Source: Candidatus Eiseniibacteriota bacterium (GTDB taxonomy: Bacteria > Eisenbacteria > RBG-16-71-46). Taken from it: a stretch of 64,000 bases of DNA. Both the position numbers and the translations under genes were made by a program. Location of the stretch: contig CAVQXP010000004.1 of NCBI GenBank assembly GCA_963717935.1, positions 2,048,001 to 2,112,000 of the forward strand, read 5' to 3'. The notes beneath the pieces were generated by a model. The model was not told the origin of the DNA. It was given only the letters and a program-made list of their open reading frames with translations, and did not search any database. This document shows positions 2,846 through 27,490 of the stretch, one piece after another (the first letter of the stretch is position 1; every line of letters starts with the position of its first letter).

Positions 2846-5764
<2,919 letters not shown>

Positions 5765-5768
<4 letters not shown>

Positions 5769-6875: not shown

Positions 6876-7133
6876 CTTCGGGGGACGTCCGCCGCCAGCC
6901 TGAAGGCGCACGCGCGGGCCGTCATCCGGCGACGGTGAACGGGACCACGGTCGCTCGCTCGGCGCCGGCGGGGATCTGCTCCGGTCGCAGGCACACCGCG
7001 AGCGCGCCTCACCCGGAGACCGGGCGTGCCCCGCTGGCATCGGACGGCGGCTTGGAACGGCTCCGCCAGCTTGCGAGCGCCTGGCGTCGATCAGCCGTGG
7101 GGCATCGCGCCGCGGCGTCCGACGGCGTGCTCC

Positions 7134-7162
7134 TTGACCGTCTCGGGGCCCTTCGGTACCTT
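7134..7162 (+). promoter_or_regulatory. Sigma70-type promoter of gcv operon
   Basis: TTGACC-N17-TACCTT followed by AAGGAG RBS and ATG 7195. Confidence 0.65.
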
Positions 7163-7194
7163 GCAAATGTCCGCTCATCCGCAAGGAGATAGTC

Positions 7195-8304
7195 ATGTCC
7201 ACGCTCGGCGCTGCAAGGCCTACCCCGTTCACCGTCTACCACCGCGCCCTCGACGCGAAGCTCGTGGAGTTCGCGGGGTTCGAGCTTCCCCTGCGGTACA
7301 CCGGCGACCTGCGCGAGCACCAGTGCGTGCGCAACGCGGTGGGCGTCTTCGACATCACCCACATGGGCGAGTACCACGTTTCGGGCCCCGGAGCGGGCGA
7401 TTTCATCCACCGCATGGTCACGAACGACGTGCTGGGCATGCAGGTCGGCCAGGCGATCTACACGGCCATGTGCCGCCCGGACGGGGGCATCGTGGACGAC
7501 CTGCTCGTCTACCGTCTGCCGGACCGCTGGATGATGGTCGTGAACGGGGCCACCAACGCCAAGGACTGGGCGTGGCTGAAGGAACAGGTGCCGACGGGCG
7601 TCGAGTTCCGGGACATCAGCGACGAGACGGCGCTGCTCGCCGTGCAGGGGCCGAAGGCCGAGCTCGTGCTCCGTGGCCACGTGCCCGACGCGGCGCTCGA
7701 CCTGGGCTTCTACCGCCTCATGGAGGGTGCGGCCTTCGGCGCCCCGGCGGTCATCTCGCGCACCGGCTACACCGGCGAGGATGGCTTCGAGCTCTACTTC
7801 GCTCCGCGCCACGCCGCGCAAGTGTGGGAGGGGCTGATGGCGGCGGGCCGCCCCCACGGTCTACAGCCCGTGGGGCTCGCGGCCCGGGACTCGTTGCGGC
7901 TCGAGATGGGCTACATGCTCTACGGGAACGACATCGACGACACCACCACGCCGCTGGAGGCCGGGATCGGCTGGACGGTGAAACTGAAGAAGGACGCATT
8001 CAACGGGCGCGAGGCTCTGCTCCGGCAGAAGGAGGCGGGGCTCGTCCGCAAGCTCGTGGGCTTCGAGCTCGACGGACGCCGGGTCGCTCGGCACGACATG
8101 ACGATCGAGTCCGGCGGGCGCGCGGTGGGCCGGGTCACGAGTGGCACGTTCAGCCCGAGCCTCGAGCGCCCGATCGGCATGGGCTACGTGGAAAGCGCGC
8201 TGGACCGCCCGGGTGGCACCCTCGAGGTGCTGGCCGGCGGGACGCGCCTCAATGTGCGCATCGCTCCGCGCCCCTTCTGGACGCGGGGCTCGCGCCGCTC
8301 CTGA
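7195..8304 (+). CDS. gcvT: Glycine cleavage system aminomethyltransferase T
   Basis: FDITHMGE, GGIVDDLLVY, SRTGYTGEDGFE, ARDSLRLEMG, GRVTSGTFSPSL. Confidence 0.97.
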   Translation: MSTLGAARPTPFTVYHRALDAKLVEFAGFELPLRYTGDLREHQCVRNAVGVFDITHMGEYHVSGPGAGDFIHRMVTNDVLGMQVGQAIYTAMCRPDGGIVDDLLVYRLPDRWMMVVNGATNAKDWAWLKEQVPTGVEFRDISDETALLAVQGPKAELVLRGHVPDAALDLGFYRLMEGAAFGAPAVISRTGYTGEDGFELYFAPRHAAQVWEGLMAAGRPHGLQPVGLAARDSLRLEMGYMLYGNDIDDTTTPLEAGIGWTVKLKKDAFNGREALLRQKEAGLVRKLVGFELDGRRVARHDMTIESGGRAVGRVTSGTFSPSLERPIGMGYVESALDRPGGTLEVLAGGTRLNVRIAPRPFWTRGSRRS

Positions 8305-8314
8305 GGAGGATGCC

Positions 8315-8704
8315 GTGGGCTACCCCGATGACGTCCGCTACACCGCCGAGCACGAGTGGGCCCGGCTCGAGAAGGGCATCGTCACCATCGGCGTCACGTC
8401 CTACGCCACCGAGCAGCTCGGCGACGTGGTCTTCGTCGAGTTGCCGGAAACCGGCGCCCGGCTGGAGGCGCTGAAGGCCTTCGGCGTGATCGAGGCCGTG
8501 AAGACCGTCAGCGACCTCTTCGCGCCGGTGTCCGGCGAGGTGATCGAGCGCAACGGTGCGCTCGCCGACAACCCCGCGCTCGTGAACCAGGATCCGTTCG
8601 GCGAGGGCTGGATCCTGCGCATCCGGCCCTCCGACCCGGCCGAGCACGCGAAGCTGATGTCCAACGTGGACTACGAGAAGCACGTGGAGGGGCAGCACGC
8701 ATGA
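8315..8704 (+). CDS. gcvH: Glycine cleavage system H protein
   Basis: GAGGAGG RBS then GTG; YTAEHEWA, LGDVVFVELP, lipoyl-lysine motif EAVKTVSDL, NQDPFGEGW. Confidence 0.96.
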   Translation: MGYPDDVRYTAEHEWARLEKGIVTIGVTSYATEQLGDVVFVELPETGARLEALKAFGVIEAVKTVSDLFAPVSGEVIERNGALADNPALVNQDPFGEGWILRIRPSDPAEHAKLMSNVDYEKHVEGQHA

Positions 8705-10041
8705 GCTTCGTCGGCCTGACGCGTGACGAGGAGCAGCGCATGCTGCAGGAGATCGGCGTCGCGCGCTTCGAGGACTTGCTCGCGGCGATCCCGAAGGACG
8801 TGCTGCTCGAGCATCCGCCCGTGATCCCCGGGCCGCTCTCGGAGATCGACCTTCGCCGCCTGCTGGGCAAGTGGTCCAGCGAGAACCACGCCGCCGAGAT
8901 GGTCTCCTTCCAGGGCGGCGGGGTCTACGACCACTGGATCCCGGCGGCGGTGGACGCGCTCGCGAACCGCTCGGAATTCGTCACGGCCTACACGCCCTAC
9001 CAGCCCGAGGTCGCGCAGGGCACTTTGACGGCCATCTTCGAGTTCCAGAGCATGATGGCGGAGCTGACGGGCTGCGACGTGGCCAACGCGTCGATGTATG
9101 ACGGCGCCACCGCCACGGTCGAGGCCGCGCTGCTCGCGCGCCGCCAGACCGGACGCAAGCGCGTGGTCGTGGCGGGGATGGTCCATCCGCACACGCTCGC
9201 GGTACTGCGCACGTACCTCGACCCGGTCGAGGTCACGCAGGTCGGGGACATCGCGGGACTCGCGGCCCCCGCCGCCCTGAAGGCGGCCCTCGGGCTCGAC
9301 ACGGCCTGCCTCATCTACCAGCACCCGAACTTCTTCGGCCTGCTCGAGAGCCCCGCGCCCCTGCACGCGCTCGCCCACGACGCGGGTGCGCTCGCCATCG
9401 CGGTCTGCGATCCCATCGCGCTCGCCCTGCTCGAGCCGCCCGGCCGCACCGGCGCCGACCTCGTGGTGGGGGAGGCGCAGTGCCTCGGGAACCCGATGTC
9501 CTTCGGCGGCCCGCTGCTGGGCTACTTCGCCGCGAAGCAGAGCCTGCTCCGCGGGCTGCCCGGCCGGCTCGTCGCAGAGACCGCCGACCGCCAGGGTCGC
9601 CGCGGATTCGTCCTGACGCTGCAGACCCGCGAGCAGCACATCCGGCGCGAGAAGGCCACGTCCAACATCTGCACGAACCAGGGACTGATGGCGCTGCGCG
9701 CCACGATCCACATGGGCCTGCTGGGCCGCCTGGGGATGCGCGAGGTCGCGGAGTTGTGCGTCCAGAAGAGCCACCACGCCGCGCGGCTCGCCGCCGGGAT
9801 CCCGGGCTACGCGCTCGCCTACGAGGCCCCCTTCTTCCGGGAGTTCGTGCTGCGCTGCCCGGTCGAGGCGCGCCGGGTGATCGAGGCCGGCCTCGAGTTC
9901 GGGGTGAGTCCCGGGATCAACCTCGGGCGCTTCCGGCCCGAATGGAAGGACCTCCTGCTGGTCGCCGTGACGGAGCTGCGGGACGCGAGCGAGATCGACC
10001 TCTGGGTCCAGGCCCTGCGCAAGGCAGGGGGTGCGCGATGA
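8701..10041 (+). CDS. gcvPA: Glycine dehydrogenase (decarboxylating) subunit 1
   Basis: EFVTAYTPYQPEVAQG, ANASMYDGATA, LQTREQHIRREKATSNICTNQ; ATGA overlap. Confidence 0.96.
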   Translation: MSFVGLTRDEEQRMLQEIGVARFEDLLAAIPKDVLLEHPPVIPGPLSEIDLRRLLGKWSSENHAAEMVSFQGGGVYDHWIPAAVDALANRSEFVTAYTPYQPEVAQGTLTAIFEFQSMMAELTGCDVANASMYDGATATVEAALLARRQTGRKRVVVAGMVHPHTLAVLRTYLDPVEVTQVGDIAGLAAPAALKAALGLDTACLIYQHPNFFGLLESPAPLHALAHDAGALAIAVCDPIALALLEPPGRTGADLVVGEAQCLGNPMSFGGPLLGYFAAKQSLLRGLPGRLVAETADRQGRRGFVLTLQTREQHIRREKATSNICTNQGLMALRATIHMGLLGRLGMREVAELCVQKSHHAARLAAGIPGYALAYEAPFFREFVLRCPVEARRVIEAGLEFGVSPGINLGRFRPEWKDLLLVAVTELRDASEIDLWVQALRKAGGAR

Positions 10042-11498
10042 TCATGCCCCGCCGGCTGTTGATCGAGCAGGGTGGCGCGGGCCACCGGGGCCCGGCGCTG
10101 CCCGCGTGCGACGTGCCGCAGCGGCCGCTCGCCGAGTTGTTCCCGGGCGTGGCCCTGCGGGCCGAGCTGGCGTTCCCGCAGGTCAGCGAGCCCGAGGTGG
10201 TGCGGCACTTCACCGAGCTCTCGACGCTCAACCACCACGTGGATCGTGGCTTCTACCCGCTCGGTTCGTGCACGATGAAGCACAACCCGAAGATCGACGA
10301 GGAACTCGCCGGCCTGGCGGGCTTCGCGAAGGCGCATCCCCTGGCGGGCGACGACGCGACCCAGGGCGCACTGCGGGTCATGGCGTCGGTGCAGCGCCTG
10401 CTCGCCGACATCACCGGCTTTGCCGCGGTGACGACGCAACCCGCCGCGGGCGCGCACGGCGAGTTGACCGGCCTGCTGCTGATCCGTGCGTATCACCGGG
10501 CGAAGGGCGATGGCGAGAAGCGCCGCCGCGTGATCGTGCCCGATTCGGCGCACGGCACCAACCCGGCGAGCGCGAGCCTGGTCGGCTACGAGACCGTGGT
10601 GATCCCCTCCGGCCCCGATGCGACCGTGGACCTCGAGGCGCTGGCGCGGGCTCTGGACGAGCGCACGGCGGCGGTGATGCTCACCGTGCCGAACACGGTC
10701 GGCCTGTTCGAGCCGCGCGTGCTCGACGTGACCAGGCTGGCGCACCAGGCCGGGGCGCAGTGCTACATGGACGGAGCCAACCTGAACGCTCTCGTGGGAA
10801 GGGTGCGGCCGGGTGACCTGGGCTTCGACGTCATGCACATCAACGTGCACAAGACGTTCTCGACCCCGCACGGCGGGGGCGGCCCGGGAGCCGGGCCCGT
10901 GGCCGTGGCCAGCCACCTCGAGCCATTCCTGCCGATGCCGATCGCCGTGGTCGAGCAGGGCGGACGGGTGCGCCTCGATTGGGAGCGCCCGCAGTCGATC
11001 GGCCGCGTGCACTCCTTCAACGGCAACTTCGGCATCCTGCTGAGAGCCCTGGCCTACATGCTCACGCTCGGGCCCGAGGGACTCGCCGAGGTGAGCCGGG
11101 TCGCCATCCTGAATGCCAACTACCTCATGCGGCGGCTGGCGAAGACGTACGACCTGCCGAATCCGCAACACTGCATGCACGAGTTCGTGCTCTCGGGCCG
11201 GGGGCTCAAGAAGCACGGCGTGAAGACCCTCGACGTGGCGAAGCGCCTGCTGGATTTCGGCGTGCACGCGCCGACGGTCTACTTCCCGCTCATCGTCGAG
11301 GAGGCCCTGATGATCGAGCCCACCGAGACGGAGACGCTCGACCGGCTCGACCACTTCGCCTCGGCGATGGAGCGCATCGCCACCGAGGCGGCAGAGAACG
11401 CCGAACTGCTGCAGCAGGCCCCTCACACCACACCCGTGGGCCGCCTCGACGAGGCTCGCGCCAGCCGTGAGCCCAAGCTCCGATGGAGCCTCCCGTAG
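10038..11498 (+). CDS. gcvPB: Glycine dehydrogenase (decarboxylating) subunit 2
   Basis: GFYPLGSCTMKHNP, QPAAGAHGE, PDSAHGTNPASA, PLP-lysine motif HINVHKTFSTPHGGGGPG, MIEPTETE. Confidence 0.96.
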   Translation: MIMPRRLLIEQGGAGHRGPALPACDVPQRPLAELFPGVALRAELAFPQVSEPEVVRHFTELSTLNHHVDRGFYPLGSCTMKHNPKIDEELAGLAGFAKAHPLAGDDATQGALRVMASVQRLLADITGFAAVTTQPAAGAHGELTGLLLIRAYHRAKGDGEKRRRVIVPDSAHGTNPASASLVGYETVVIPSGPDATVDLEALARALDERTAAVMLTVPNTVGLFEPRVLDVTRLAHQAGAQCYMDGANLNALVGRVRPGDLGFDVMHINVHKTFSTPHGGGGPGAGPVAVASHLEPFLPMPIAVVEQGGRVRLDWERPQSIGRVHSFNGNFGILLRALAYMLTLGPEGLAEVSRVAILNANYLMRRLAKTYDLPNPQHCMHEFVLSGRGLKKHGVKTLDVAKRLLDFGVHAPTVYFPLIVEEALMIEPTETETLDRLDHFASAMERIATEAAENAELLQQAPHTTPVGRLDEARASREPKLRWSLP

Positions 11499-11589
11499 GG
11501 TCGAGACCCACCAGGTGGGAAGGAAGGGAGATTTGGGGCTGAGCGCAGGACGCGCTTCGCAGGAGGCTCGGTCCATCGAGCCGGGCACG

Positions 11590-12039
11590 ATGCCGCCCGA
11601 TGTCCGCGTGGGCTCTCCGGCCACGGTGGAGTGGACCGTCAGCCCATGGCGGGAGGACCCCGCCCGAGCAGCGCTCGCGGTGCTCGCGGCCCTGCTCCTG
11701 GGGTTGTTGGCAGCGTGGCTGCTGGCGGGGGAACGCTTCCTCGCCACGCTCATGGGTCTGGCCGTGCTCGGCGTGCTGGCGCCGGGAATGACCCCGATCG
11801 CGTGCCGGGTGGACGACGATGGTGTGGCGCGCCGCGTGCTCTTCGCCTGGCACCGCAGGACCTGGCCGGAGATCCGGCGGGCCCGGCTGAGTGCCAACGG
11901 GCTCTTCGTCTCGCCGTTCGCGCGGCGCAGCCGGCTCGACCGTTTCCGGGGCCTGTACCTCCCCGTGCCGCGCCGCACGGCGCGTGCCGAGGCGTTGCTC
12001 GAGGCCCTGCGGCAGGAGGTGCAGCGTCATGGCCTCTGA
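11590..12039 (+). CDS. Hypothetical membrane protein (two TM helices plus small C-terminal beta domain)
   Basis: EWTVSPWRE followed by two hydrophobic helices, then SPFARRSRLDRFRG; overlaps next gene; start uncertain. Confidence 0.7.
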   Translation: MPPDVRVGSPATVEWTVSPWREDPARAALAVLAALLLGLLAAWLLAGERFLATLMGLAVLGVLAPGMTPIACRVDDDGVARRVLFAWHRRTWPEIRRARLSANGLFVSPFARRSRLDRFRGLYLPVPRRTARAEALLEALRQEVQRHGL

Positions 12040-12400
12040 GACGCCCCCGCTGGCCGCCGAGGATCTGGCGCTGCTCGAGCGCGTGGCCGGGCGTGTGGTG
12101 GAGTTGCGCCTCGAGGTACCGGCGATCCTGACGCTGGAGTCCGTGCGGCCTCTCTCGTTCGTGGCAAGCCAGGCCATGCTCTTCTTCCAGCCGCTGGTGC
12201 AGGCGCTCCTGCGCTTCGGTGACTACCAGCGTTTCGCAGCGCTGGCCGAGCGCCGCGACGCGCTCGAAGCGTTGACCGCGTGCATCGAGCGCCGCGCGGA
12301 GGAGTCCCGGGCCGCGCGCAGGGCGGCACGCGCGGGGGCCGCGAAGGGCCCGGCGGCGGCCTCCGGAGGACCCGGTGGGCGCGCCGGGAAGACGACATGA
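12029..12400 (+). CDS. Hypothetical helical protein
   Basis: AGGAGG RBS; VPAILTLESVRPLSFVASQAMLFFQP; ATGA overlap with next gene. Confidence 0.75.
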   Translation: MASETPPLAAEDLALLERVAGRVVELRLEVPAILTLESVRPLSFVASQAMLFFQPLVQALLRFGDYQRFAALAERRDALEALTACIERRAEESRAARRAARAGAAKGPAAASGGPGGRAGKTT

Positions 12401-14240
12401 GCGGCCGCACGACGCCTCCCCGCCCGGAGGACGTCCATTCGATCCTCGCCACCGACTGCGGGTCCACGACCACCAAGGCCATCCTCATCGAGCGTCGGGG
12501 CACCGCGTACCGGCTCATCGCGCGCGGCGAAGCGCCCACCACGGTCGAGGCCCCGTTCGAGGACGTGACGCGCGGCGTGCTGAACGCGGTGCGCGAGGTG
12601 GAGGAGCTGGCCGGCCGGCGCCTGCTGGATGGGGATGTCATCCTCACGCCGATGCAGCAGGGCGCGGGCGTGGACCTCTACGTCACGACCTCGAGCGCGG
12701 GCGGCGGGCTCCAGATGATGGTCTCGGGCCTGGTGCTGCAGATGACGGGGGAGAGCGCCCAGCGGGCGGCGCTGGGTGCCGGGGCGATCGTGATGGACGT
12801 CATCGCCCTGAACGACGGCCGACGGCCGCACGAGAAGATCCAGCTCCTGCGGCAGTTGCGCCCCGACATGATCCTCCTCTCGGGGGGCACGGACGGCGGG
12901 GACGTGCGGCGCGTCGCCGAACTCGCCGAGTTGCTCGTCGCGGCCGGTCCGACGGCCCGGCTCGGCGCCGGCTACCAGCTCCCGGTGGTCTACGCGGGCA
13001 ACCACGACGCGGCGGGCGTGGTGCGCGATCTGCTCGAGCCCCATGCGGCCATGAAGGTGGTCGCGAATCTGCGGCCCGCACTCGAGCGCGAGAACCTGCG
13101 CCCCGCTCGCGACGCCATCCACGAGCTCTTCATGCAGCACGTCATGGCGCACGCCCCGGGCTACCGCCGGCTCATGAGCTGGTCGCCGGTGCCCGTCATG
13201 CCCACGCCCGCTGCGGTGGGTCTCATGATCGAGCGCCTGGCGCGGCGCGACCACCTCTCCGTGCTGGGCGTGGACATCGGCGGAGCCACCACCGACGTGT
13301 TCTCGGTGTTCCAGGGGAGCGGCGGCGAGGCGGTCTTCCACCGGACCGTCTCCGCCAACCTCGGCATGAGCTACTCGATCGCGAATGTCATGGCCGAGGC
13401 CGGCCTCGAGAACATCCTGCGCTGGGTGCCGTTCCCGGTGGAGGAGGCGGTGCTGCGGAACCGCGATCCGCAACAAGATGATCCGCCCCACCACCATTCC
13501 GCAGACCCTCGAGGACCTGCTGATCGAGCAGGCCATCGCGCGCGAGGCGCTGCGGCTGGCGTTCGAGCAGCACCGGGCGCTGGCGGTGGAGCTCAAGGGC
13601 GTGCAGCAGGAGCGCACGATCTCCGAGGCGCTCCGCCAGTCGGCGGGGGGGGCCTCGGTCGTGGACCTGCTGGAAGTCGGGCTCATCGTGGGCTCGGGCG
13701 GCGTGCTCTCGCACGCCCCGCGCCGCGTGCAGGCAGCGCTCATGATGGTGGATGCGTTCCTGCCGGAGGGGCTCACGCTGCTGGCGGTGGACAGCATCTT
13801 CATGGCGCCCCAGCTCGGCGTCCTCTCGACCGTGCACGAGCAGGCCGCCAGCGAGGTCTTCGATCACGACTGTCTGGTGCGGCTCGGCGCGGTGCTCGCG
13901 CCTATCGGCACGGGGCGTCCCGGACAGGCCTGCGTGACCGTCGAGGTGAGCGGCCCCGACATGACGCCCGTGAGCCGGCGCGTGGCCTTCGGGGAGATGG
14001 CCCTGCTCCCGCTGCCCCCGGCCAACGCGTTCGGCCGCGTGAGCGCGGTGCCCGAGCACGGCTTCGACCTCGGAGCCGGGCGGGGGCGCCCGGTGAGCGC
14101 CCGCGTCCCCGGCGGCAGCGTGGGACTCATCGTGGACGCACGCGGACGTCGGCCCTTCGAGCTGCCCGTCGCCACAGCCCGCATCGAGCGCCTGCGCGCC
14201 TGGCACCGCGCGCTCGCGCTCTATCCCCGGGAGGTCGTGA
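12397..14240 (+). CDS. Glutamate mutase L (GlmL)-like ASKHA-fold ATPase (frameshift near 13465; 3' end ambiguous)
   Basis: Phosphate-1 ILATDCGSTTTKA, SSAGGGL, LLSGGTDGG, phosphate-2 GVDIGGATTDVFS, RTVSANLGMSYS, adenosine motif VGSGGVLSHAP. Confidence 0.85.
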
Positions 14241-14242
14241 GC

Positions 14243-15375
14243 ATGGCGCACGCCTACACGCCCGGGACTCCGGGTGACCGCGCGCACCGTCGTGCGCCGC
14301 GAGCGACGGCTGCCGCTGAAGGGGCACGTCCTGGTCAAGGCTCGGCGACGCCGTCGGCCCCCAGGACGTCGTGGCGCGCACCGAGCTGCCCGGGAACGTG
14401 CAGACCATGAACCTGGCCTCGCGGCTGGATGTCGATCCCGCCCGGGTCCCGCAGGCCCTCCGCAAGCCGCTCGGCTCGGACGTGCGCGCCGGGCGAGGTG
14501 CTGGCCGGGACGCGGGGATTCTTCGGGTTCGCCCGGCGCAGCGTCGTGGCGCCGGCCGACGGCTTCCTCGAGAGCGTCTCGTCCGTGACCGGGCAGCTCG
14601 TCCTGCGCGAGCCGCCGATCCCGGTCGAGGTCAGCGCCTACGTACGCGGCATCGTGGTCGAGGTGCTGCCGGACGAGGGCGTGATCGTGGAGGCGCGCGG
14701 CGCTCTCCTGCAGGGCATCTTCGGTGTGGGGGGCGAGACCTGGGGCGCGGTGGCGCTGGCGGTGGACTCGCCCGATGCCGAGCTGACGCCGGGGCGCCTG
14801 CGGCCCGAACACCGCGGGCACGTGGTCGTCGGCGGCGCGCTACGTCAGCCTACGAGGCCCTCATGCGCGCACGCGCGCTGGGCGTCGCGCGCGGTGGTGG
14901 CGGGCGGCATCGACGACCTCGGACCTGCGGCAGTTGCTGGGGCACGAGCTGGGGGTGGCCATCACCGGCTCGGAGAACCTCGGCCTCACGCTGGTGCTGA
15001 CCGAGGGCTTCGGACGGATCCGCATGTCGGACCGCGCCTGGGACCTGCTCGGCGCTCGTGCCGGCCGCCTGGCATCGGTCAGCGGCGCGACGCAGATCCG
15101 TGCCGGGGTGCTGCGCCCCGAGGTGCTGATCCCCGAGTCCGACCCCGGCACGGCGCCCGTCGAGCGCGACACGGGCGCGGGGCTCGCACTCGGATCGCTG
15201 GTGCGCGTGATCCGCGCGCCGCACTTCGGACGCGTCGGCCAGGTGGTGGAACTCCCATCCGAGCTCAGGAAGCTCGAGACCGAGGCCATGGTGCGCGTGC
15301 TGGTCGTCGCCTTCCGGGAGGACGGGGCGCGCGCCGCTGGTCCCTCGCGCCAACGTGGAGATCATCGCCTCGTGA
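14243..15375 (+). CDS. Conserved-looking hypothetical protein with barrel-sandwich-hybrid-like repeats and C-terminal KOW-like motif (multiple frameshifts)
   Basis: Reconstructed across frames: MAHAYTPG..RRERRLPLKGHVLVK..VVARTELPG..GEVLA..VVAPADG..QGIFGVGGE..GVAITGSE..TEGFG..GATQIRAGVLRPE..GSLVRVIRAPHFGRVGQV..VPRANVEIIAS*. Confidence 0.8.
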
Positions 15376-15395
15376 GCCGGGCATCCCCGAAATCG

Positions 15396-15424
15396 TTGAC
15401 AGGGCGGGCGGGGCGTCTTAGGCT
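15396..15424 (+). promoter_or_regulatory. Sigma70-type promoter in front of the membrane-protein genes
   Basis: TTGACA-N17-TAGGCT. Confidence 0.7.
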
Positions 15425-15493
15425 TTCCGCACCCGCGTGCCCATTCGCTGCCGGCCGCGGCCTGGGCCCCGCACGTGCAACACGGAGGTCGCC

Positions 15494-16773
15494 ATGACGG
15501 GAGGGACGGCGTGCAACACCGCGCGGGCCTGACGGCCGTGGTCGTGCTGGTGGCGCTGCTCGCGCCGCCCGCCGCGCGCCCAGGTAACCGCCATGAGCGG
15601 AGCGCCGCCGATCATCGTCCCCGAGGCCGCGATCGCGAGCCCTCCTGCGCCGGCGCTCCTCCCGGGCGAGTTGCAGGCCCCCCATCCCGCCCGCAGCCTC
15701 ACCTGGACGGACGCCCCGGACGACGCCGGACGCGCCGTGGACCTGTCCTGGGAGCCGTCGCCCGACGACGACGGGCTTCACGTGCTCGTGGACGGCTATT
15801 ACCTGATGCGCTCGGAGAGTCCGGGCGGGCCCTGGACCCTCGTGGACTCGGTCGCCGCCGGGGTGGCCACCTCCCGGGACCAGTCGGCGAGCCTCCGCCG
15901 CGACGTGGCCTACTTCTACCGCGTGGACACGCACGGCCCGGGCGGCGTCACCCCGGCCGGGAGCGTGACCGGGCCGGCCTTCGCGAGCGTCGCAGTGGTT
16001 CAACCACACGCGCTGGAGCGTGCTGCTGCTGACCATGTTCTTCTTCGGCTTCGTGCTGTTCTTCATCCAGAGCGCGCAGGGCGAGGGAAAGAAGCCCGTT
16101 CCTCCGGCGCATCCCCGGCATCGACGCCATCGAGGAGGCCATCGGCCGGGCGACGGAGATGGGGCGCCCGGTGCTCTACGTGCCCGGCGTGCAGGACATC
16201 GAGGACATGCAGACCGTGCAGGCGCTGATCATCCTCGAGAGCGTCGCGAAGACCACCGCCCGTTATCGAGACGCCGATCAAGGTGCCGGTCTCGTACCCC
16301 ATCCCGTTCACGATCGCGCAGGAGATGGTGAAGAGCGGCTACGTGCACGCCGGGCGCGCGGAACAGTACGACCCGGACAGCGTTCAGTTCGTCTCGCCCG
16401 AGCAGTTCGCCTACGTCGCGGCGAATCACCGGCGTGATGACGCGCGACAAGCCGGCCGCGCACATCTTCCTGGGGGCGTTCTTCGCGGAGTCCCTGCTGC
16501 TGGCCGAGAGCGGGCCACGCGACCGGGGCCATCCAGGTCGCGGGCACGGCGAACGCGAACCAGCTGCCCTTCTTCGTCGTGGCCTGCGACTACACGCTCA
16601 TGGGCGAGGAGTTGTTCGCGGCCAGCGCCTATCTCTCGGGCGAACCGAAGCTCGTGGGCAGCCTCAAGGGCGCCGACCTCATGAAGATCACCATCATCGT
16701 CCTGCTGGTGGTCGGCTGCGTGCTCGAGACGTTCGGGCAGCACGGCCTCACGCAGTGGCTGGCAACGCAATAG
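15494..16773 (+). CDS. Membrane protein: signal peptide, fibronectin-III-like domain, DUF6754-like domain (multiple frameshifts; start 15494 or 15511)
   Basis: Signal-like VVVLVALLAP; FN3-like VDLSWEPSPDD..GYYLMRS..YFYRV; TM; RRIPGIDAIEEAIGRATEMGRPVLYVPG; FLGAFFAESLLLAE; IQVAGTANANQLPFFVVACDYTLMGEELFAASAYLS. Confidence 0.8.
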
Positions 16774-16783
16774 GAGGCGAGGC

Positions 16784-17434
16784 GTGAAGCGCGAGATCCC
16801 GCTGTTCGTGACCGCCACGATCGGCCTCTTCATGATCCTGTCGTTCTTCGTGCCCCATCAACTGGTGAGCGTGCCCGCGGACTTCCTCCAGCAGAGCGCG
16901 ATCATCATCGTGGCCTTCGGCATCGTGCTGGGCGGGGCGAACCTGCTGCGCGTGAACCTCGAGGCGGTGGTCCGGCGCCAGCCCGACTGGCCGTACAAGC
17001 TCGTGCTCATCGCGGGGCTGGTCGTGACGGTCGCCCTCGGTCTCATCGAGGGCCGCGACTTCCAGGCGCCCGGCACCCGCTCGACCTGGATCTACGACCA
17101 CGTGTACTCCTCGATGAGCAGCGCGATGTTCGCCCTGCTGGCCTTCTTCATCGCGTCGGCGGCGTTCCGCGCGTTCCGGATCCGCACCGTGGAGGCCGCG
17201 CTGCTGGCGGCGGCCGCCTTCATCCTGATGATGGGGCGCGTGCCGCTCGGGGGCGTGCTCACGGCCGGGCTCCCGCGCGAGCTGCGGATCGAGACCCTCG
17301 CGCAGTGGATCCTGGACGTCCCGCAGAACGCCGCCAACCGCGCCATCCTCATCGGCGCGGCGCTGGGCGTGATGGCCACCGGCCTGCGCGTGATCCTCGG
17401 GATCGAGCGCAGCTACCTGAGCGGGGAGGATTGA
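16784..17434 (+). CDS. Hypothetical polytopic membrane protein (about 6 TM)
   Basis: Intact 216-aa ORF, AGGAGG RBS; MFALLAFFIASAAFRAFR, WILDVPQNAANRAILIGAALG, LRVILGIERSYL. Confidence 0.88.
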   Translation: MKREIPLFVTATIGLFMILSFFVPHQLVSVPADFLQQSAIIIVAFGIVLGGANLLRVNLEAVVRRQPDWPYKLVLIAGLVVTVALGLIEGRDFQAPGTRSTWIYDHVYSSMSSAMFALLAFFIASAAFRAFRIRTVEAALLAAAAFILMMGRVPLGGVLTAGLPRELRIETLAQWILDVPQNAANRAILIGAALGVMATGLRVILGIERSYLSGED

Positions 17435-17437
17435 GCC

Positions 17438-18273
17438 GTGAGCCTGGCCGCTTCCTTCGAGCGTCTGGACCGCCGCTGGATCTATCGGCATCATGGCGCT
17501 GCTCGTCCTCCTGCCGCTGCTCTGGCCCCTGAACCTGCCCGCTGGAGCCCTCGCCGCCGGTGCGCGCCTACCACGACGCGATCGCCGCATTGCCTCCCGG
17601 CAGCACCGTGCTGATGTCCTGCGACTTCGACCCGGCGTCGCGGCCCGAGCTCGAGCCCATGGCCCGCACGACCCTGCGGCAGCTCTTCCGCAGGCACTGC
17701 AAGGTCGTCGTGGTGGTGCTGTACCCGGGTGGCGCGCGCATCGTGGACGCGATCGTCCAGGACGTGGCGCAGAGAGTGCCGCCAGGTCGACGGCGTCGAC
17801 TACGTCAACCTCGGCTACAAGGCCGGGCAACGAGGCGGTCATGGTGCTCATGGGGCAGAGCATCGCGCAGACCTTCCCGCGCGACCACAACGGCCGCGAC
17901 GTGACGCGCCTGCCCGATCATGCGGTTGCTGCGAAACTACTCCAGCTGCGCCCTGCTGGTGAGCCTCTCCGTGGGCTACCCGGGCACCAAGGAGTACGTG
18001 CAGCAGGTGCAGGGACGCTTCCACATCCCCATCATCGCCGGCGTGACCGCGGTGTCCGCGCCGCACGCTCTACCCGTACCTGCAGAGCGGGCAGTTGCGC
18101 GGGCTGCTCGGCGGCATGGCCGGGGCTGCCGAGTACGAGGACCTGCGTTACGAGCGCGGCATGGCATCGCGGGGCATGGACGCGCAGTCGCTCGCGCACA
18201 TGTTCATCGCGCTGTGCATCGTGCTCGGCAACGTGGCGCAGTGGGAGCGCAAGCGGAAGGAGACGCGCGATGA
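17438..18273 (+). CDS. Hypothetical membrane-anchored alpha/beta protein (multiple frameshifts)
   Basis: Reconstructed: MSLAASFERLDRRWIY..DFDPASRPELEPM..GVDYVNLGYK..GYPGTKEYVQQ..IIAGVTAV..GLLGGMAGAAEYE..MDAQSLAHMFIALCIVLGN. Confidence 0.78.
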
Positions 18274-18947
18274 GCCCGCACCCGAGTCCCGACCCTGCGG
18301 CGTGTGGGTGGCGGCCGCGCTCACGCTCTGCGTCTTCAGCTTCCTCTACCGGGAGAATCCGTTCTATCGCTTCGCCGAGCACCTGTTCGTGGGCGTCTCG
18401 GCCGGGTACTACATCGTTCTGAACTTCTGGACCGTGCTCGTGGCGAACCTCTGGGATCCGCTCGTCGCCGCGTTCGACGGCCGGCAGGGCTCGCCGTTCG
18501 CCGCGCACCTCGGGGACTACCGCGCGTTCCTGCTGCTGCCCGCCCTGCTCGGCTTGCTGCTGTTCTCGCGCTTCCTGCCGCGCTACGCCTGGATGGCGCG
18601 CTGGTCGCTGGCGGTCATCATCGGGGTCTACGCCGGCCTCAAGACCACGGGCTTCGCCCAGGGCGACTTCGTGGCGCAGGTCCACGGCAGCATCCAGCCG
18701 CTCTGGACCGGCCACTGGGGCTCGAGCGTGAACGCGTGGATCTTCACCATCGGGCTCGTGACGTCGCTGCTCTTCTTCTACTTCAGCCGCGAGCAGAAGG
18801 GGGCGCTGGGCTCGGCTTCGCGTCGTCGGCGTCTTCTTCCTGATGGTCTCCTTCGGCGCGGGCTACGGCTACACGGTGATGTCCCGCATCTCGCTCCTCA
18901 TCGGGCGCTTCCAGTTCCTGCTGTTCGACTGGCTGGGCCTGCGCTGA
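18270..18947 (+). CDS. Hypothetical polytopic membrane protein (frameshifted)
   Basis: ATGA overlap at 18270; WVAAALTLCVFSFLYRENPFYRFAEHLFVGVSAGY..FFYFSRE..FLMVSFGAGYGYTVMSRISLLIGRFQFLLFDWLGLR*. Confidence 0.8.
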
Positions 18948-18966
18948 GCGCCGACCTCCGCCCGCG

Positions 18967-19756
18967 ATGATCCTCTGGTGCGACGGGGGCCACGATCCCG
19001 CCGAGAACATGCGGCGTGACACGGCACTCCTCGAGGCCGCAGCCGCGGGGGCAGAGCCGGTCCTGCAGGCTCTTCACGCTTCGTCCCCCCGGGCATCACC
19101 CTGGGCCGCGCGCAGGATCCCGGGCGCGAGCTCGACCTCGACCGGTGCCGCGCAGCCGGGGTCCCCTGGGCCGTGCGTCCCACCGGAGGCCGCGCCATCT
19201 ACCACGACGAGGAGTGGACCTACTCGCTGGCCGCCGCGGCTGGCCGACCCATCGTGGGGCGGCGGGCTGGAGGCGGCGTACGGAAAGGCCTCCGGCCTCC
19301 TGGTGGCCTCGCTCACGCGCCTGGGCGTGCCCGCCACGCTCACGCCCGGGGCGGCGCGCGGCGGACCTCGCGCCGCGCTCCGCCCGGGGCGCCGCAGCAC
19401 CGTGCTTCGCCTCGACGGCGCGCCACGAGATCGTGCTGGAGAGCGGCAAGCTCGTGGGCAGCGCGCAGCGGCGGACGGCGCGGGCATTGTTGCAGCAGGG
19501 AAGCGTGCTGCTCGGCCCCGCCCACCTGAGGCTGGCGGACTTCCTCGCGATCCCGGATTGCGCGCGGGAGCGCGTGCGCGCCGGCCTCGATCAGGCCTCG
19601 GCGCACGCCGGTCCGTGGCTGGGGCCACGGCCGCCGCTCGCGCGCTGGGCGGACGCCTTGCAGCCGGACCTGCCCGCGGGCACCCGCCGGATCGACGGCG
19701 AGAGCGGGCTGGCCTTGACGGGCGCCGGCATCCCGACACCGTCCCTGCTCGGTTGA
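18967..19756 (+). CDS. Lipoate-protein ligase A / octanoyltransferase (LplA/LipM family), frameshifted
   Basis: ENMRRDTALL, RPTGGRAIYHDEEWTYS, PCFAS, KLVGSAQRR, LLQQGSV. Confidence 0.88.
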
Positions 19757-19825
19757 CCCCCGACCCGGAGCGGTCGGATACTCGGGTTGCCTCACGCGCT
19801 CCCGCTCCTCCTGGAGGGCAGGAAG

Positions 19826-21614
19826 ATGGCCCACCGGCATGCGATCCGGATGGGACTGGCCGCGGCGCTCGTCGTGAGCTGCGGTGGCCGCTCCGGCCTG
19901 CGCCCAGCCCCTGCGCACCCCCATGCGCGAGGCGGGCGTCCCCGGGCGGCCGCTTCGTGATCGGCGTGACCAACGACGCCAGGACCTTCAATCCGATCAT
20001 GTCGAACGAGACCAACTCGAGCGACGGTGAGCGACCGGCTCTTCACGGCGCTGACCGAGTTCGACAACATCGCGCAGAAGCCGTCCCCGGCGCTCGCCCG
20101 GAGCTGGGAGGTGAGCCGCGGACGGGCTCACCTGGACGTGGCACCTGCGGCGGGGCGCGCGGTTCTCCGACGGGCATCCGATCACCGCGGAGGACGTCCT
20201 CTTCAGCTTCGCGGTGGCCTACGATTCGACCCTGCACCAGTCCATCTACGATCTGCTCACGCCGTACGGGCAGAAGCTGCAGGTCTCGGCCCCGGACTCC
20301 TACACCGTCGTGACGCGCGTCGCCCGGCCGCACGCCCTCCTGGTGCCGGCGGTGGGGGCCCTGCGCATCCTTCCCCGGCACGTGCTCGAGCCCGCCTGGC
20401 GGGCAGGCCGCTTCGCCTCGTCCTACGGCGTGACCACGCCCACCCGAGAGCCTGGTGACGAGCGGGCCCTGGAAGCTCAAGCAGTTCGTCCCGCGGGAGA
20501 AGACCGTCCTGACGCGCAACCCGTACTGGTTCGGCGTGGACGCCCGCGGGCGGCGGCTCCCGTACCTGGACGAGCTGGTCTTCCTCGTGGTCCCGGACCA
20601 GAACACCGCGGCCCTCAAGTTCCAGGCCGGCGAGGTCGACGGCATCGACAACGTGAAGGCGGAGGACTACGGGACCTTCGCCCGGAGGCAGACGCGCGGC
20701 GGCTACACGCTCCACGACCTGGGTGCCGCGCTGACGAGCAACTTCTTCTGGTTCAACCTCAATACGGTCAAGCAGCCGGGCGGGCAGGAAGCCGGTGGGC
20801 GCGCCGTTCGCGGACCCGGTCAAGCTACGCCTGGTTCTCCAGCCGCGACTTCCGTCGCGCGGTCTCCATGGCCATCGACCGCGATGCCATCATCCGCAGC
20901 GTCTTCTTCGGCGAGGGCGTGAAGAACTGGTCCCTCATGACCCCGGGCTACCGGCTCGTTCCACGACTGCGCGGTCACGGCCGCCTGCGACTACGACCCG
21001 CCGCGGGCGATGCGCCTGCTCGCCCGGCTCGGCTTCCGCGACCGCGACGGCGACGGCGTGATCGAGGACTCGAAGGGCAACCCCGTGCGCTTCACCCTCA
21101 AGACCAACGCGGGCAACGTGCGCGTCCAGATGGCCAACTTCGTGCGGGACGACCTGGCCCGGGTCGGCATCCAGTGCAGCGTGGCCGCGGTCGACTTCAA
21201 CACCTGATCGACAACATGCGCGAGGACTTCGACTACGACGCCATCCTGGCCGGCCTGGGCGCCGCGGTCCCGCCCGACCCGGCGATGTGCGGCAACTTCT
21301 ACCGCTCCAGCGGGCTCTCGCACTTCTGGAACGTCCGGCAGAGCGCGCCCGGAGACCGCCGGCAGAGGCTCGGCTCGACTGCCCTCTTCGGCGAGCTGCT
21401 CCTGCCCGCGCACTTGTCCGACCCGCCGGCAGCCTGAGCGCGCAGCATGGACCGGATCCTGGACGATCGAGTGCTGGCTCATCTGGCTGCCGACCATGAA
21501 GGTCAGAGCTGCCGGTGCGCGAACCGCTTCGGGAACGTGCACCCCACGATCCTGCCGCACCGCCTGCTCTGGAACATCGAGACGGTGTTCGTCAAGCCAC
21601 GGGGCCGGAGCTAG
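19826..21614 (+). CDS. Peptide/nickel ABC transporter substrate-binding lipoprotein, family 5 (heavily frameshifted)
   Basis: Lipobox AALVVSC; RTFNPI, ALARSWEVS, FSDGHPITAEDV, TSGPWKL, RNPYW, LPYLDE, FRRAVSMAIDR, GFRDRDGDG. Confidence 0.85.
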
Positions 21615-21652
21615 GGCCCGGGCCCTTGCGACCGCGGCCGACGCACCGGAGC

Positions 21653-22631
21653 ATGCGAACCTACGTCCTGCGCAGGCTGCTGCAACTCGATCCCGCTGCT
21701 GCTCGCCGTCGTCGTGCTCACCTTCGCTGCTCCTGAAGCTCGCGCCCGGGCGACTACCTCACGACCCTCGTCGGCGAATCCCCAGGTGCTCGGCCGCGAC
21801 GCTCGAGGCCATGCGGCACCGCTTCGGCCTCGACCGGCCCTGGACCGTGCAGCTCGCTCTCTACCTGAAGAACCTCGTCCTGCGCCTCGACCTCGGCGAG
21901 TCCTTCTCGCGCCACCGCCGGTGTTCGCGGTGCTGCGCGAGGGGCTGCTCGAACACGCTGCTGCTGGCCGCTGGCGGGCGCGCTGGTGACCTGGGGCGCT
22001 GGCCATCCCGCTGGGCGCCTGGGCGGCCGCGCGACAGGGCACCGCCGTGGACCGCACGCTCTCGCTGGTGGCCTTCATCGGTCTCTCGGTGCCGGAGGTG
22101 CTCTCGGGGCTGCTGCTGCTCATGCTCGCCGCGCACACCGGGTGGTTCCCGGTGGGAGGGATGCGCTCGCTCGACTGGGAGATCGCTGCCGCTCGCGGGC
22201 CGGGCGCTGGACGTGCTGCGGCACCTCGCGCTGCCCGGCGCTGGTCGTGGGGCTCGTGCCGCTCGCCGAGCCGCATGCGGCAGATGCGCTGCCAGCCTGC
22301 TCGACGTGCTGCGCCTCGAGTACGTCACGACCGCCCGGGCGAAGGGCCTCGACGAGCGCACGGTGGTGATGAAGCACGCGCTGAGGAACGCCTCAATCCG
22401 CTCATCACGCTCTTCGGCTACACGCTCGGGTCGCTGCTGTCGGGCTCGCTCGTCGCCGAGATCGTCTTCTCGTGGCCCGGCCTGGGACGCGTCACCTACG
22501 AGGCCATCCTGTCGCGCGACCAGTACCTGGTCGTCGGCTCGGTCCTGATGGCCGCGGTGGTGCTGGTGCTCGGCAACCTCGTCGCGGACCTGCTGCTCGC
22601 CGCGGCGGACCCGCGGATCCGCCATGAGTGA
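21653..22631 (+). CDS. Opp/Dpp ABC permease, OppB-like (frameshifted)
   Basis: MRTYVLRRLLQ, FGLDRP, LDLGESF, YVTTARAKGL, EIVFSWPGLG, NLVADLL..DPRIR. Confidence 0.88.
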
Positions 22632-23737
22632 GCCCGCCGCCGGCCGCCGCCACAATCGCCCGGGCGCGTGTTCTGGCGCCAGTTCCGCGCGCAACCCGCT
22701 CGCGCTCACCGGCGGCGCGCTGCTCGCGCTGTTCTACGCGCTCGCGCTCCTCGCGCCCTTCGTCGCCCCCTACCCCCAGGACGAGCTGGACCGCAGCCGC
22801 TTCTACCACCCGCCCGCAGGCGCCGCACTGGCGGGACGCCGGCGGGCCGGCTGCACCTGCGCCCGTTCGTGTACGCGACCGTGCCGGGTCCCGGCATCTT
22901 CGAGTACCGCGAGGACCGTTCACGCCGCTGCCGCTGCGCTTCTTCGTGCGCGGCTCGCCGCTACCGGCTGCTCGGGCTCGTGCCCACCGACCGGCACCTC
23001 TTCGGCGTGGACGCGCCCGGAGCGCGTGAACCTGCTCGGCACCGACCCGGCGGGCCGCGACGAGCTCTCGCGGCTGCTCTTCGGGGCGCGCGTCTCGCTG
23101 ACCGTCGGGCTCGTGGGCATCGCTCATCTCCTTCGCCCTCGGGCTGCTCCTGGGCGGCGTGTCGGGCTACCTCGGCGGCTGGGTGGACGGACTCATCATG
23201 CGCGTCGAGCGAGGTCCTGCTCAGCATCCCCGGGCTCTACCTGATCATCGCCCTGCGCTCGGTGTTCCCGGCCGAGCCTGCCGAGCCGGCAGGTCTACCT
23301 CGCCATCGTGGCCATCCTGGCGCTCATCGGCTGGGCCGGGCTGGCCCGCGTCATCCGCGGCATGGTGCTCTCCATCCGGCGCTCCGACTTCGTGACCGCC
23401 GCCGAGGCCCTGGGCATGAGCCGCATGCGCATCATCGTGCGCCACGTGCTGCCCAACACGCTGTCCTTCGTCATCGTGGCGGCGACGGTCTGGCCGTGCC
23501 GGGCTACATCCTGGGCGAGGTCTTTCTGTCCTTCCTCGGCGTCGGCGTGCAGGAGCCCAGCGCTTCGTGGGGGAACATGCTGCAGCAGGCGCGCAGTCTC
23601 ACCGTGCTCACGGACTTCCCCTGGCTGCTGTACGCTCCCGGCGTGGCGATCTTCCTGACGGTGATGGCCTTCAACTTCCTCGGCGACGGGCTGCGCGACG
23701 CGCTCGACCCGCGCCGGACCGGCGCAGGCAGGGCGGG

Positions 23738-23741
<4 letters not shown>
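22624..23741 (+). CDS. Opp/Dpp ABC permease, OppC-like (frameshifted)
   Basis: [76 protein letters not shown]. Confidence 0.88.
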
Positions 23742-25798
<2,057 letters not shown>

Positions 25799-26037
25799 CG
25801 CTCCGCCCGTCCCGGCAGGTTCCGTGAGCGGCGCCCGACACCGCCTCCCAGCCGAATTGCGGGTTCCGCCCCATCCGGAGGCCCCGACCCGGGGCTAAAC
25901 CCCCGCGGCCTCCCGGTCGCCCGAACACGATCCATCGGCGCCCCCCCCGCAGCCCACGTCGGGACCCACCGTAACGGATTGCTGCGAGGCGGCATGCGCC
26001 GAGCGCTGCGCGCCCGAGGGCGCAGCCCGGCACACGA

Positions 26038-26547: not shown

Positions 26548-26862
26548 GTGCCACGTGAAGCGTTCGGTCTGGTCGAGACGCGCGGGCTGGTCCCTGCCAT
26601 CGAGGCCGCCGACGCCATGTGCAAGACGGCCCGGGTCCGCCTGACGCGCTTCGAGATCACGCGCGACGCCCTGGTCACGGTCACCGTTCGCGGTGCGCTC
26701 GCCGAGGTCGAGGCAGCAGTGGCCGCCGGGGCTGCCGCGGCGGCGGGCAAGGGCACGGTGCTCGCGCGCCATGTGATTCCGGCGCCCGAGCGACAACTCG
26801 AAGAACCGATCGCGGGACCCCCGCCGGGTGCGGCGGCCCCCGGGAACGACACAACCCCCTAA
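26548..26862 (+). CDS. BMC hexamer shell protein (BMC-H), divergent, with Pro-rich C-terminal tail
   Basis: [50 protein letters not shown]. Confidence 0.9.
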
Positions 26863-26872
26863 GGAGAGTCCC

Positions 26873-27172: not shown

Positions 27173-27174
27173 CG

Positions 27175-27480: not shown

Positions 27481-27490
27481 GGCGCTTCCC

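Follow-up and report, generated by a model that had tools for sequence, protein, structure and literature searches.

Reactivating factors of B12-dependent enzymes, such as DdrAB/PduGH and EutA, consist of an ATPase of the ASKHA superfamily together with a small alpha/beta partner, and the proteins GlmL (MutL) and Or-4, captured by the families NF040745, NF040744 and PF13941, have the same ASKHA fold, GlmL being an accessory protein of the coenzyme-B12 glutamate mutase and Or-4 a GlmL-related protein of ornithine degradation. An ATPase gene with the Pfam family, the fold and the nucleotide-binding motifs of GlmL is also found in a cluster of eight co-oriented genes, here termed g1 to g8, at positions 11590–18947 of a 64,000-nt stretch from Candidatus Eiseniibacteriota bacterium (contig CAVQXP010000004.1, positions 2,048,001 to 2,112,000), with that whole stretch referred to as the window below. 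This ATPase, g3, differs from GlmL and Or-4 in its low scores against their models, in about 120 additional C-terminal residues, in having g2 and the often fused g4 as constant partners and in adjoining a membrane module of four genes (g5–g8), with no glmS, glmE or other mutase gene near it. The likeness to DdrAB/PduGH and EutA is that of an ASKHA-superfamily ATPase, and a review places glutamate mutase L, the diol dehydratase reactivase and EutA in one superfamily with actin, MreB, FtsA and PilM (PMC5597319). Pfam and PDB searches gave no sequence match between g3 and these reactivases, and no target B12 enzyme was encoded in the sequence examined.

The best explanation that we can offer for the cluster, judged from sequence comparison and structure modelling and given a rough probability of 0.45, is a conserved, mostly vertically inherited ATP-driven membrane machine built from two modules, probably a transporter. 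As a system it appears to be neither a member nor a variant of anything described, and among its components our searches point to known relatives only for the ATPase superfamily, the FN3 domain and the KOW domain. Literature searches found no paper on DUF6754, a domain of g5, or on this gene cluster, and a text retrieved for glutamate mutase together with Nitrospira deals with a true glutamate mutase in Dictyoglomus.

Results

The ATPase belongs to a separate and old subfamily

Protein analyses were performed with intact orthologues from L002, an Eisenbacteria metagenome-assembled genome sharing synteny with the window over the interval uvrA to opp. As an earlier note on this DNA had proposed, the ATPase falls within the GlmL/MutL Pfam family, with the L002 g3 protein matching the MutL profile PF13941 at 412.5 bits over profile positions 1–450 (gathering score 27), and with the window g3 matching the same profile at 322.5 bits (positions 1–316) in one frame and 74.6 bits (positions 312–450) in the next. 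The more specific NCBIfam models gave scores far under their cut-offs, at 217.2 bits for the GlmL equivalog NF040745 (cut-off 475), 202.1 bits for Or-4 NF040744 (cut-off 600) and 156.7 bits for TIGR01319 glmL_fam (cut-off 204.05). The NCBIfam model alignment spans g3 residues 12–480 and leaves an extra C-terminal domain of about 120 aa beyond model position 455, and the intact relatives of g3 are 603–614 aa long, whereas a GlmL would have about 460 aa and no further domain. Nor does g3 lie between or beside glmS and glmE, as a glmL gene would, in the window or in the flanks scanned. In agreement with the earlier note, a B12 mutase or B12-binding domain was found neither among the 78 open reading frames (ORFs) of the window nor among 96 flank proteins from 18 loci and 24 further proteins (mostly one representative per recurrent neighbour cluster), with the remainder of the genomes lying outside that search. 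The sequence sources label the g3 relatives 'glutamate mutase L'.

The motifs DCGSTTTKA, DIGGATTDV and GSGGVLSHAP, which we take to be the phosphate-1, phosphate-2 and adenosine motifs of ASKHA ATPases, are all present in the translation of the window, and their columns are invariant or nearly so in the g3 alignments. The protein thus carries the motifs expected of an ASKHA ATPase. A weak match to MreB-like_C was also seen (E 0.02), and a search of PDB sequences with a g3 profile returned nothing usable.

The ATPase had been described as an orphan, which it is not. The homologue search scored 8000 candidates, all of which were homologues at E ≤ 0.001, with the best 120 at 78–92% identity to g3; the closest relative, P0001, was 92% identical to the window protein over 353 aa. 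Matches to g3 at E ≤ 1e-30 came from 724 clusters of a library with a clustering threshold of 50% identity, and at least 552 GTDB species genomes encode a relative (552 of 600 pattern-matched stretches). Across phyla, g3 sequences are about 60% and g4 sequences about 50% identical. The g3 tree tracks the phylum labels, requiring 14 label changes against a minimum of 13, and the window g3 is nested within the Eisenbacteria clade with an SH-aLRT support of 98. Because of the score of 217 bits against a cut-off of 475, the extra C-terminal domain and a tree that follows the phyla, g3 is, as far as sequence comparison can tell, a separate, old and mostly vertically inherited subfamily, and the idea of a recently repurposed GlmL had to be abandoned.

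Some relatives carry large additions ahead of the g3 domain, including a peptidase M1 domain in P0131 (1332 aa) and a TSP3 repeat in P0124 (1304 aa), and unassigned N-terminal extensions of 88 and 206 aa precede g3–g4 fusions (P0199 and P0267). These additions may be real fusions or gene-calling artefacts.

The gene cluster recurs across phyla as two modules

For the neighbourhood counts, 80 fetched loci were searched with iterated hidden Markov models (HMMs) for g1 to g8. The gene order g(1)-2-3-4-5-6-7-8 recurs, and g3–g8 are all present in 43 of the 80 loci, a co-occurrence that on these counts exceeds chance and that refutes the possibility, raised in advance, that the genes do not co-occur in other genomes. 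Ten named phyla are represented by such loci, namely Eisenbacteria, Dormibacterota, Nitrospirota, Latescibacterota, Zixibacteria, Ignavibacteriota, Fidelibacterota (Marinimicrobia), Planctomycetota, Armatimonadota and Rifleibacteriota. Of 48 loci whose sequence extends 6 kb or more to either side, 31 hold the complete set of membrane genes, one holds a part of it and 16 hold none, so that g5–g8 behave as one unit. All 31 loci with the full membrane module carry g4, and g5–g8 never occurred without g4 and g3 in the fetched loci. In six loci (L044, L048, L049, L052, L065 and L070) two or three copies of g5 stand beside a single g3/g4, with g7 duplicated in five of them. The copies of the membrane module are arranged in tandem, and in two of these loci, L052 and L070 of Ignavibacteriales, they are encoded on the opposite strand.

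The partners of the ATPase are also well conserved. A near-constant partner is g2, found in 70 of the 78 loci for which upstream sequence was available, and g4 is present in 63 of the 75 loci with at least 1.5 kb downstream; relatives of g1 were found less widely (25 of 77 loci having at least 1 kb upstream). Gene fusions tie the same proteins together: of 150 representative proteins, 43 join g3 to g4, among them P0122 (995 aa), which is colinear with window positions 12421–15320, and a g2–g3 fusion was seen in L004 and in one of the 150 representative proteins.

Domain composition of the partners and of the membrane module

The two proteins encoded ahead of the ATPase, g1 and g2, look like membrane tethers, and neither these nor g6, g7 and g8 matched any Pfam or NCBIfam family with confidence when the L002 orthologues were searched. 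No Pfam or NCBIfam family was found for g4 either, and a profile search of the PDB gave nothing usable. Its AlphaFold2 model (L002 orthologue; predicted local distance difference test score, pLDDT, 86.4) has three parts, a beta domain at the N terminus, an alpha/beta domain in the middle and a KOW/SH3-like domain at the C terminus. Comparison of this model with the PDB by Foldseek gave domain-level matches only, to the KOW domain of Spt5/NusG, the membrane-fusion protein BesA and an MccF-like alpha/beta domain, with the C-terminal domain matching Spt5/NusG KOW at a probability of 1.0 and a target-normalised template modelling (TM) score of up to 0.86. Of the domains named in the earlier note, PF13941, DUF6754 and FN3 hold, with the KOW match being a weak one by sequence (19.2 bits for a window g4 piece with PF00467, cut-off 22.3).

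The profile of lipoyl/biotinyl carriers, PF00364, gave 15.8 bits with g4 (cut-off 22.1), and in 56 g4 sequences no column that is invariant or conserved at 90% holds a lysine, so that a role as a carrier of lipoyl or biotinyl groups is not supported. In the ESM Atlas, g4 retrieved its own family only, with RnfC_N noted on 19% of the members of one cluster of g4 relatives. This brings to mind NqrA and RnfC of the Na+-NQR and RNF complexes, as the barrel-sandwich-like domain at the N terminus of g4 precedes an alpha/beta domain, and as the cluster, like those complexes, has two membrane subunits of about 200 aa plus one membrane-anchored protein with a periplasmic domain. However, no Pfam match to RnfC_N, Rnf-Nqr or NQR2_RnfD_RnfE was obtained at E ≤ 1, no redox cofactor motifs were seen, and g6 and g8 show no detectable relationship. 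The alpha/beta domain of g4 was also compared with g5 and g7, and no relationship was found, which left the idea of a DdrB-like 'subunit swap' without sequence support.

The g5 protein is predicted to comprise a signal peptide, a periplasmic FN3 domain, one transmembrane (TM) helix, a cytoplasmic alpha/beta/alpha DUF6754 domain and a C-terminal TM helix. The L002 protein matched PF20539 DUF6754 with 379.6 bits over profile positions 3–256 (gathering score 27), and in the window the domain is spread over four frames at 86.6, 45.6, 37.7 and 124.2 bits, each piece thus above 27 bits and together covering profile positions 31–256. A profile search of the PDB, with titin FN3 as the match (E 2e-28), bore out the FN3 domain, as did the fold of the AlphaFold2 model (pLDDT 83.7). 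Since a cluster of lysine and arginine residues follows the first TM helix of g5, the DUF6754 domain is probably cytoplasmic, and the lysine and arginine residues at both termini of g7 would likewise place its large alpha/beta domain in the periplasm. Conserved polar pockets were seen in both g4 and DUF6754. Comparison of the DUF6754 part with named ESM Atlas clusters gave no usable match.

The small polytopic subunits g6 and g8 both carry conserved charged residues, found in g8 within YKDNP and S-EH-G, and the window g6 is 70% identical to its L002 orthologue over the full length. Permissive Pfam scans of g6, g7 and g8 family members yielded no recurrent family apart from a weak match of g6 to TMD0_ABC, seen in 7 of 14 family members with a best E of 0.0069, and profile searches found no PDB relative for any of the three. 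Paralogy inside the module was considered and rejected, as profile–profile comparison gave probabilities of 0.3 for g6/g8 and 1.1 for g5/g7. For the eight L002 proteins, Pfam and NCBIfam searches gave no match to ABC (ATP-binding cassette), ECF (energy-coupling factor) or Rnf/Nqr energiser families at E ≤ 1, and the PADLOC models of anti-phage defence gave 0 families at E ≤ 0.01.

Predicted contact between the modules

The interface between the modules was addressed by complex prediction for g3 together with g2 and residues 195–391 of g5, the soluble DUF6754 part. The verdict was 'weak support' at a score of 0.54, with runs at 0.47, 0.55 and 0.54, the best of three controls at 0.00, agreement between runs in at least 76% of contacts and a partner pLDDT of at least 73. 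Of 157 solved complexes 116 had attained the mark for a pass, as had 2 of 215 mismatched pairs, a calibration that is only approximate for a prediction with its own alignments and three chains; a pass at 0.60 or less was seen in only 18 of the 157 solved complexes and in both of the mismatches that passed. Taken with synteny as the prior, the prediction makes docking of a g2–g3–g4 module on g5–g8 modestly likelier.

Gene boundaries and frame changes in the window

At a window G+C content of 72%, raw ORF lists carry no information. Third-position GC profiles and domain searches revealed uninterrupted plus-strand coding over the whole of 11590–18947, with the reading frame switching many times, and the GC profiles together with homology to intact relatives confirmed the eight tightly packed, co-oriented genes that had been noted before (Table 1). 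The ATGA overlaps were also borne out, at g2/g3 (12397–12400) and g7/g8 (18270–18273). Between g1 and g2 the overlap amounts to 11 nt, from the g2 start to the g1 stop (12029–12039), the spacing is 10 nt for g5/g6 and 3 nt for g6/g7, and g8 ends with a TGA at 18945–18947. A promoter and terminator scan of 7000–20500 gave nothing that exceeded shuffled sequence. The gcv gene order upstream of the cluster is the same in L002, which also has an orthologue of the downstream LplA-like gene (81.9 bits).

Table 1. Positions of the cluster genes and flanking genes in the window
Feature	Position	Strand	Description
g1	11590..12039	+	149 aa; small accessory membrane protein, hydrophobic hairpin and basic C-terminal domain; intact ORF, high third-position GC in phase 0
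g2	12029..12400	+	123 aa; small helical protein with hydrophobic stretch in the middle; intact ORF
g3	12397..14239 (end approximate)	+	GlmL/MutL-family ASKHA ATPase; 2 pieces, frame change near 13465
g4	14243..15375	+	About 374 aa; barrel-sandwich-like beta, alpha/beta and KOW/SH3-like domains; 4 pieces (HMM pieces and tblastn)
g5	15475..16773 (start approximate)	+	FN3 and DUF6754 membrane protein; 5 pieces
g6	16784..17434	+	216 aa; polytopic membrane protein; intact ORF, GTG start behind a GGAGG motif
g7	17438..18273	+	About 277 aa; N- and C-terminal TM helices around a large alpha/beta domain; 5 pieces
g8	18270..18947	+	About 225 aa; polytopic membrane protein; 2 HMM pieces, start region at 18270 in a third frame
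gcvT, gcvH, gcvPA, gcvPB	7195..11498	+	Upstream flank, all intact (Pfam GCV_T, GCV_H, GDC-P, GcvP2_C); context, membership in the system not claimed
LplA/LipB-type lipoyl ligase-like gene	18967..19760	+	Downstream flank, frameshifted; LplA-B_cat and BPL_LplA_LipB pieces; context

Only three of the eight cluster ORFs are intact as they stand, and the other five, read in pieces, require at least 13 frame changes in total. The ATPase, earlier called complete, is not complete as an ORF, having the frame change listed in Table 1 and no in-frame stop: its end '...YPREVVS' reads straight into the g4 start 'MAHAYTPG' (junction 14237–14245). P0001 ends at 'YPREV', and both P0001 and L002 keep g3 and g4 as separate genes; the in-frame junction is either an indel error or a genuine recent fusion like those common in other lineages. 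Frameshifts likewise split uvrA (2795–5800), an alcohol dehydrogenase gene (ADH, 5669–6872), the Opp genes (20115–25800), an aldehyde dehydrogenase gene, cmk (34511–35972), mutS (37353–41475) and plsY/gpsA (57588–60549), and the 4.3 kb gcvT-H-PA-PB operon is free of breaks. Eleven frame-change sites that were inspected lay mostly outside long homopolymer runs. Because housekeeping genes elsewhere in the window are broken in the same manner, we treat the breaks as indel noise across an assembly that looks unpolished and not as peculiar to the cluster, with real decay as a possibility.

Other features of the window and of related loci

About 8 kb downstream of the cluster, past the LplA-like and Opp genes, the window holds a bacterial microcompartment locus (26777–30044) with a BMC-H gene, a gene for a tandem-BMC protein, three EutN/CcmL pentamer genes and the frameshift-split aldehyde dehydrogenase gene. 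No signature enzyme was identified in this locus, which does not stand beside the cluster in the other loci examined. At the end of the window, NikR is followed by a CbiM(N)-CbiQ-CbiO cobalt/nickel transporter of ECF type (61247–63995), and two tRNA genes were found (57447–57519 and 61098–61171).

Opp-type ABC genes recur near the cluster in the window and in L001, L002, L004, L022 and L032, and in the Latescibacterota chromosomes L019 (11700–16700) and L027, where the LplA-like gene stands ahead of g1, genes for an Opp-type binding protein and two permeases separate g3 from g4. A Memo-like gene (PF01875; about 430 aa) directly follows g8 in 15 Nitrospirota loci (L024, L028, L029, L035–L042, L046, L060, L062 and L071). 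In the Brocadia locus L030, another ASKHA ATPase is encoded upstream of the cluster (160–4443, minus strand), as a 1428-aa 'CoA enzyme activase' fusion of BcrAD_BadFG, DUF2229 and HGD-D, and the family recurs in four loci, L030 included.

Discussion

A two-module membrane machine as the preferred reading

The observations are most economically read as a membrane-coupled role for the ATPase. Module A would be cytoplasmic and comprise the ATPase g3, the three-domain g4 and the small helical g2, joined in some lineages by the membrane protein g1, and module B would be an inner-membrane complex of four proteins: g5 with FN3 outside and DUF6754 inside, g6, g7 with its alpha/beta domain outside, and g8. 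On this model g3 would bind and hydrolyse ATP, and the resulting movement would reach the DUF6754 domain on the cytoplasmic side of g5 by way of g4 and g2 and would drive a conformational cycle in the polytopic g6 and g8, most likely so as to move a substrate across the cytoplasmic membrane, with the tethered periplasmic domains of g7 and g5 handling that substrate. Two or three paralogous module B copies may share a single module A. We infer physical coupling, ATP-driven action and transport from three features that suggest a transporter-like machine: the combination of cytoplasmic and periplasmic alpha/beta domains with two small polytopic subunits in which charged residues are conserved, the g3–g4 fusions, and the presence of one module A beside several module B copies.

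The resemblance to ECF and other ABC transporters with a shared energising module would lie in one ATPase module standing beside one to three membrane modules, in tethered extracytoplasmic domains and in small polytopic subunits, a likeness that is suggested here by the genes alone. The cluster differs in having no ABC ATPase and no EcfT or S-component match, in an ATPase that is actin-like and not RecA-like, and in a transport function that is putative. It is conceivable, if on balance doubtful, that the cluster represents a new class of primary-active machine, in which an ASKHA engine of the GlmL branch would replace the ABC, P-type, V/F-type or AAA+ engines, with a shareable g2–g3–g4 unit plugging into interchangeable four-subunit modules, and which would have a housekeeping role in Nitrospirota, anammox Planctomycetota and many candidate phyla of the FCB group.

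Several results weigh against a two-module machine of this kind. By sequence no subunit resembles a known transporter, and there are no PDB sequence relatives, the FN3 domain of g5 apart. The g4 model has no global fold match, with a query-normalised TM-score (TMq) of at most 0.19, and in the Foldseek search of the g5 model FN3 matches filled the list and masked any match to the DUF6754 fold. The docking prediction is weak, and most passes of this kind would be false where the guess is not already a likely one. In 16 of the 48 loci with long flanks, g2–g3 are present with or without g4 and no membrane module lies within 10 kb, the rest of the genomes being outside the search; these loci include WOR-3, Brocadia, some Marinimicrobia and Ignavibacteria, and others. 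In WOR-3, moreover, g2–g3 either abuts gcvPB or overlaps it, and plsX-fabH comes next, an arrangement that would fit a soluble role too. The window copy, finally, is broken by many frame changes and would be non-functional if those changes are real. The earlier proposal that the ATPase energises a membrane complex thus gains from the co-occurrence and the weakly positive docking in silico, and loses from the loci that have no membrane module nearby.

Alternative explanations

The alternative that fares best, although we consider it clearly less probable than transport of solutes, is that the same two-module complex moves or remodels membrane lipids or envelope components. Phospholipid or lipopolysaccharide precursor genes, co-directional with the cluster, adjoin g2–g3 in three or four lineages: plsX-fabH starts 200–260 nt after g3 in four loci of the WOR-3 clade (L033, L054, L068 and L073), cdsA directly precedes g3 in three Marinimicrobia loci and lies 3.9 kb ahead of it in a fourth (L015, L018, L034 and L032), and 13 Nitrospira loci have plsY, with CDP-alcohol phosphatidyltransferase and 3-deoxy-manno-octulosonate (KDO) genes (kdsA/B/D) upstream in six to nine of them. 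The periplasmic FN3 and alpha/beta domains would suit such a function, and high conservation with vertical descent resembles that of housekeeping genes. By a rough estimate, however, about one lineage in 12 would have such a neighbour by chance, making three or four lineages only suggestive; in other lineages the neighbours are unrelated (gcv, Opp, ribosomal protein and restriction-modification genes), and Pfam and NCBIfam scans showed no similarity to Mla, Lpt, Lol or MCE proteins. We therefore regard the recurring phospholipid genes as a lead, not a result, that may hint at a role in membrane biogenesis.

Somewhat less probable still is a soluble chaperone or maintenance ATPase, with g2–g3(–g4) acting on a soluble enzyme, for instance the pyridoxal phosphate-dependent glycine decarboxylase encoded upstream, and with the membrane genes being mere neighbours. 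This would account for gcvP being directly upstream in 28 of the 80 loci (with gcvT in 18, gcvH in 12 and uvrA in 11), for the contact between the gcvPB and g2 ORFs in WOR-3 where g5–g8 are missing within 10 kb, for the 16 loci without a nearby membrane module, and for the nearest named g3 relatives being enzyme accessory proteins. An LplA-like gene flanks the cluster in 15 of the 80 loci, after g8 in 13 and before g1 in two Latescibacterota loci. On the g3 tree, however, the loci linked to gcv or LplA are confined to the Eisenbacteria clade, the WOR-3 clade, L044/L049 and L019/L027, the gcv linkage itself to the two clades and L044/L049, and the 20 Nitrospirota loci and many others have no gcv gene nearby. 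Because the linkage is clade-limited and uvrA has the same synteny in 11 loci, these data point to real synteny that reflects inherited gene order more than common function. Rfam searches at gathering scores of the window, L002, L068 and L057 found tRNAs only and no glycine riboswitch, the constant company of g3 and g4 wherever g5–g8 occur in the fetched loci speaks against mere adjacency, and the docking prediction is weakly positive. Of the link to glycine or lipoyl metabolism suggested before, the synteny is therefore upheld and the metabolic tie is not, given also the lack of a conserved lysine in g4.

A third possibility, which we hold to be improbable, is that the actin-fold g3 polymerises or acts as a nucleotide-gated platform in the manner of PilM or FtsA, positioning or gating the membrane complex without powering transport. 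The ASKHA fold of g3, its weak match to MreB-like_C, the tether-like appearance of g1 and g2 and the grouping of GlmL-type proteins with actin, MreB, FtsA and PilM in the superfamily listing of the review (PMC5597319) are all in keeping with this. Compared with PilM–PilN, FtsA and GspL, the likeness is that of an actin-fold cytoplasmic protein predicted, with weak support, to touch the cytoplasmic part of a membrane protein; g3 differs in lying on another ASKHA branch, the cluster has no pilus, secretion or division genes, and its membrane partners are unrelated. The tight g3–g4 fusions, and likewise the polar pockets conserved in g4 and DUF6754, are more suggestive of an enzyme or engine, and polymerisation is not known from the GlmL/hydantoinase branch.

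It is very improbable that g3 is a canonical reactivase of the GlmL type for a B12 mutase whose gene lies elsewhere in the genome, and in our assessment the system is not a B12-mutase reactivase, since the membership in PF13941, the name 'glutamate mutase L' given to relatives and the CbiMQO cobalt transporter with NikR at 61.2–64 kb of the window are outweighed by g3 scoring far under all three NCBIfam cut-offs, by its extra C-terminal domain, by the lack of any mutase or B12-binding domain in the window and flanks examined and by constant neighbours that are g2, g4 and g5–g8.

Implications

If the two-module membrane machine is the correct reading, GlmL-like proteins would not be only helpers of B12 mutases, and a large, strongly conserved branch of them would be the engine of an uncharacterised membrane complex. 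DUF6754, together with five protein families lacking a Pfam or NCBIfam model, would thereby be placed in a functional context for the first time, and there would be a correction to the automatic name 'glutamate mutase L', by which glutamate fermentation is wrongly implied. The carriers of the cluster are environmentally important and include nitrite oxidisers, among them cultured Nitrospira, anammox bacteria and abundant candidate phyla of soil and sea.

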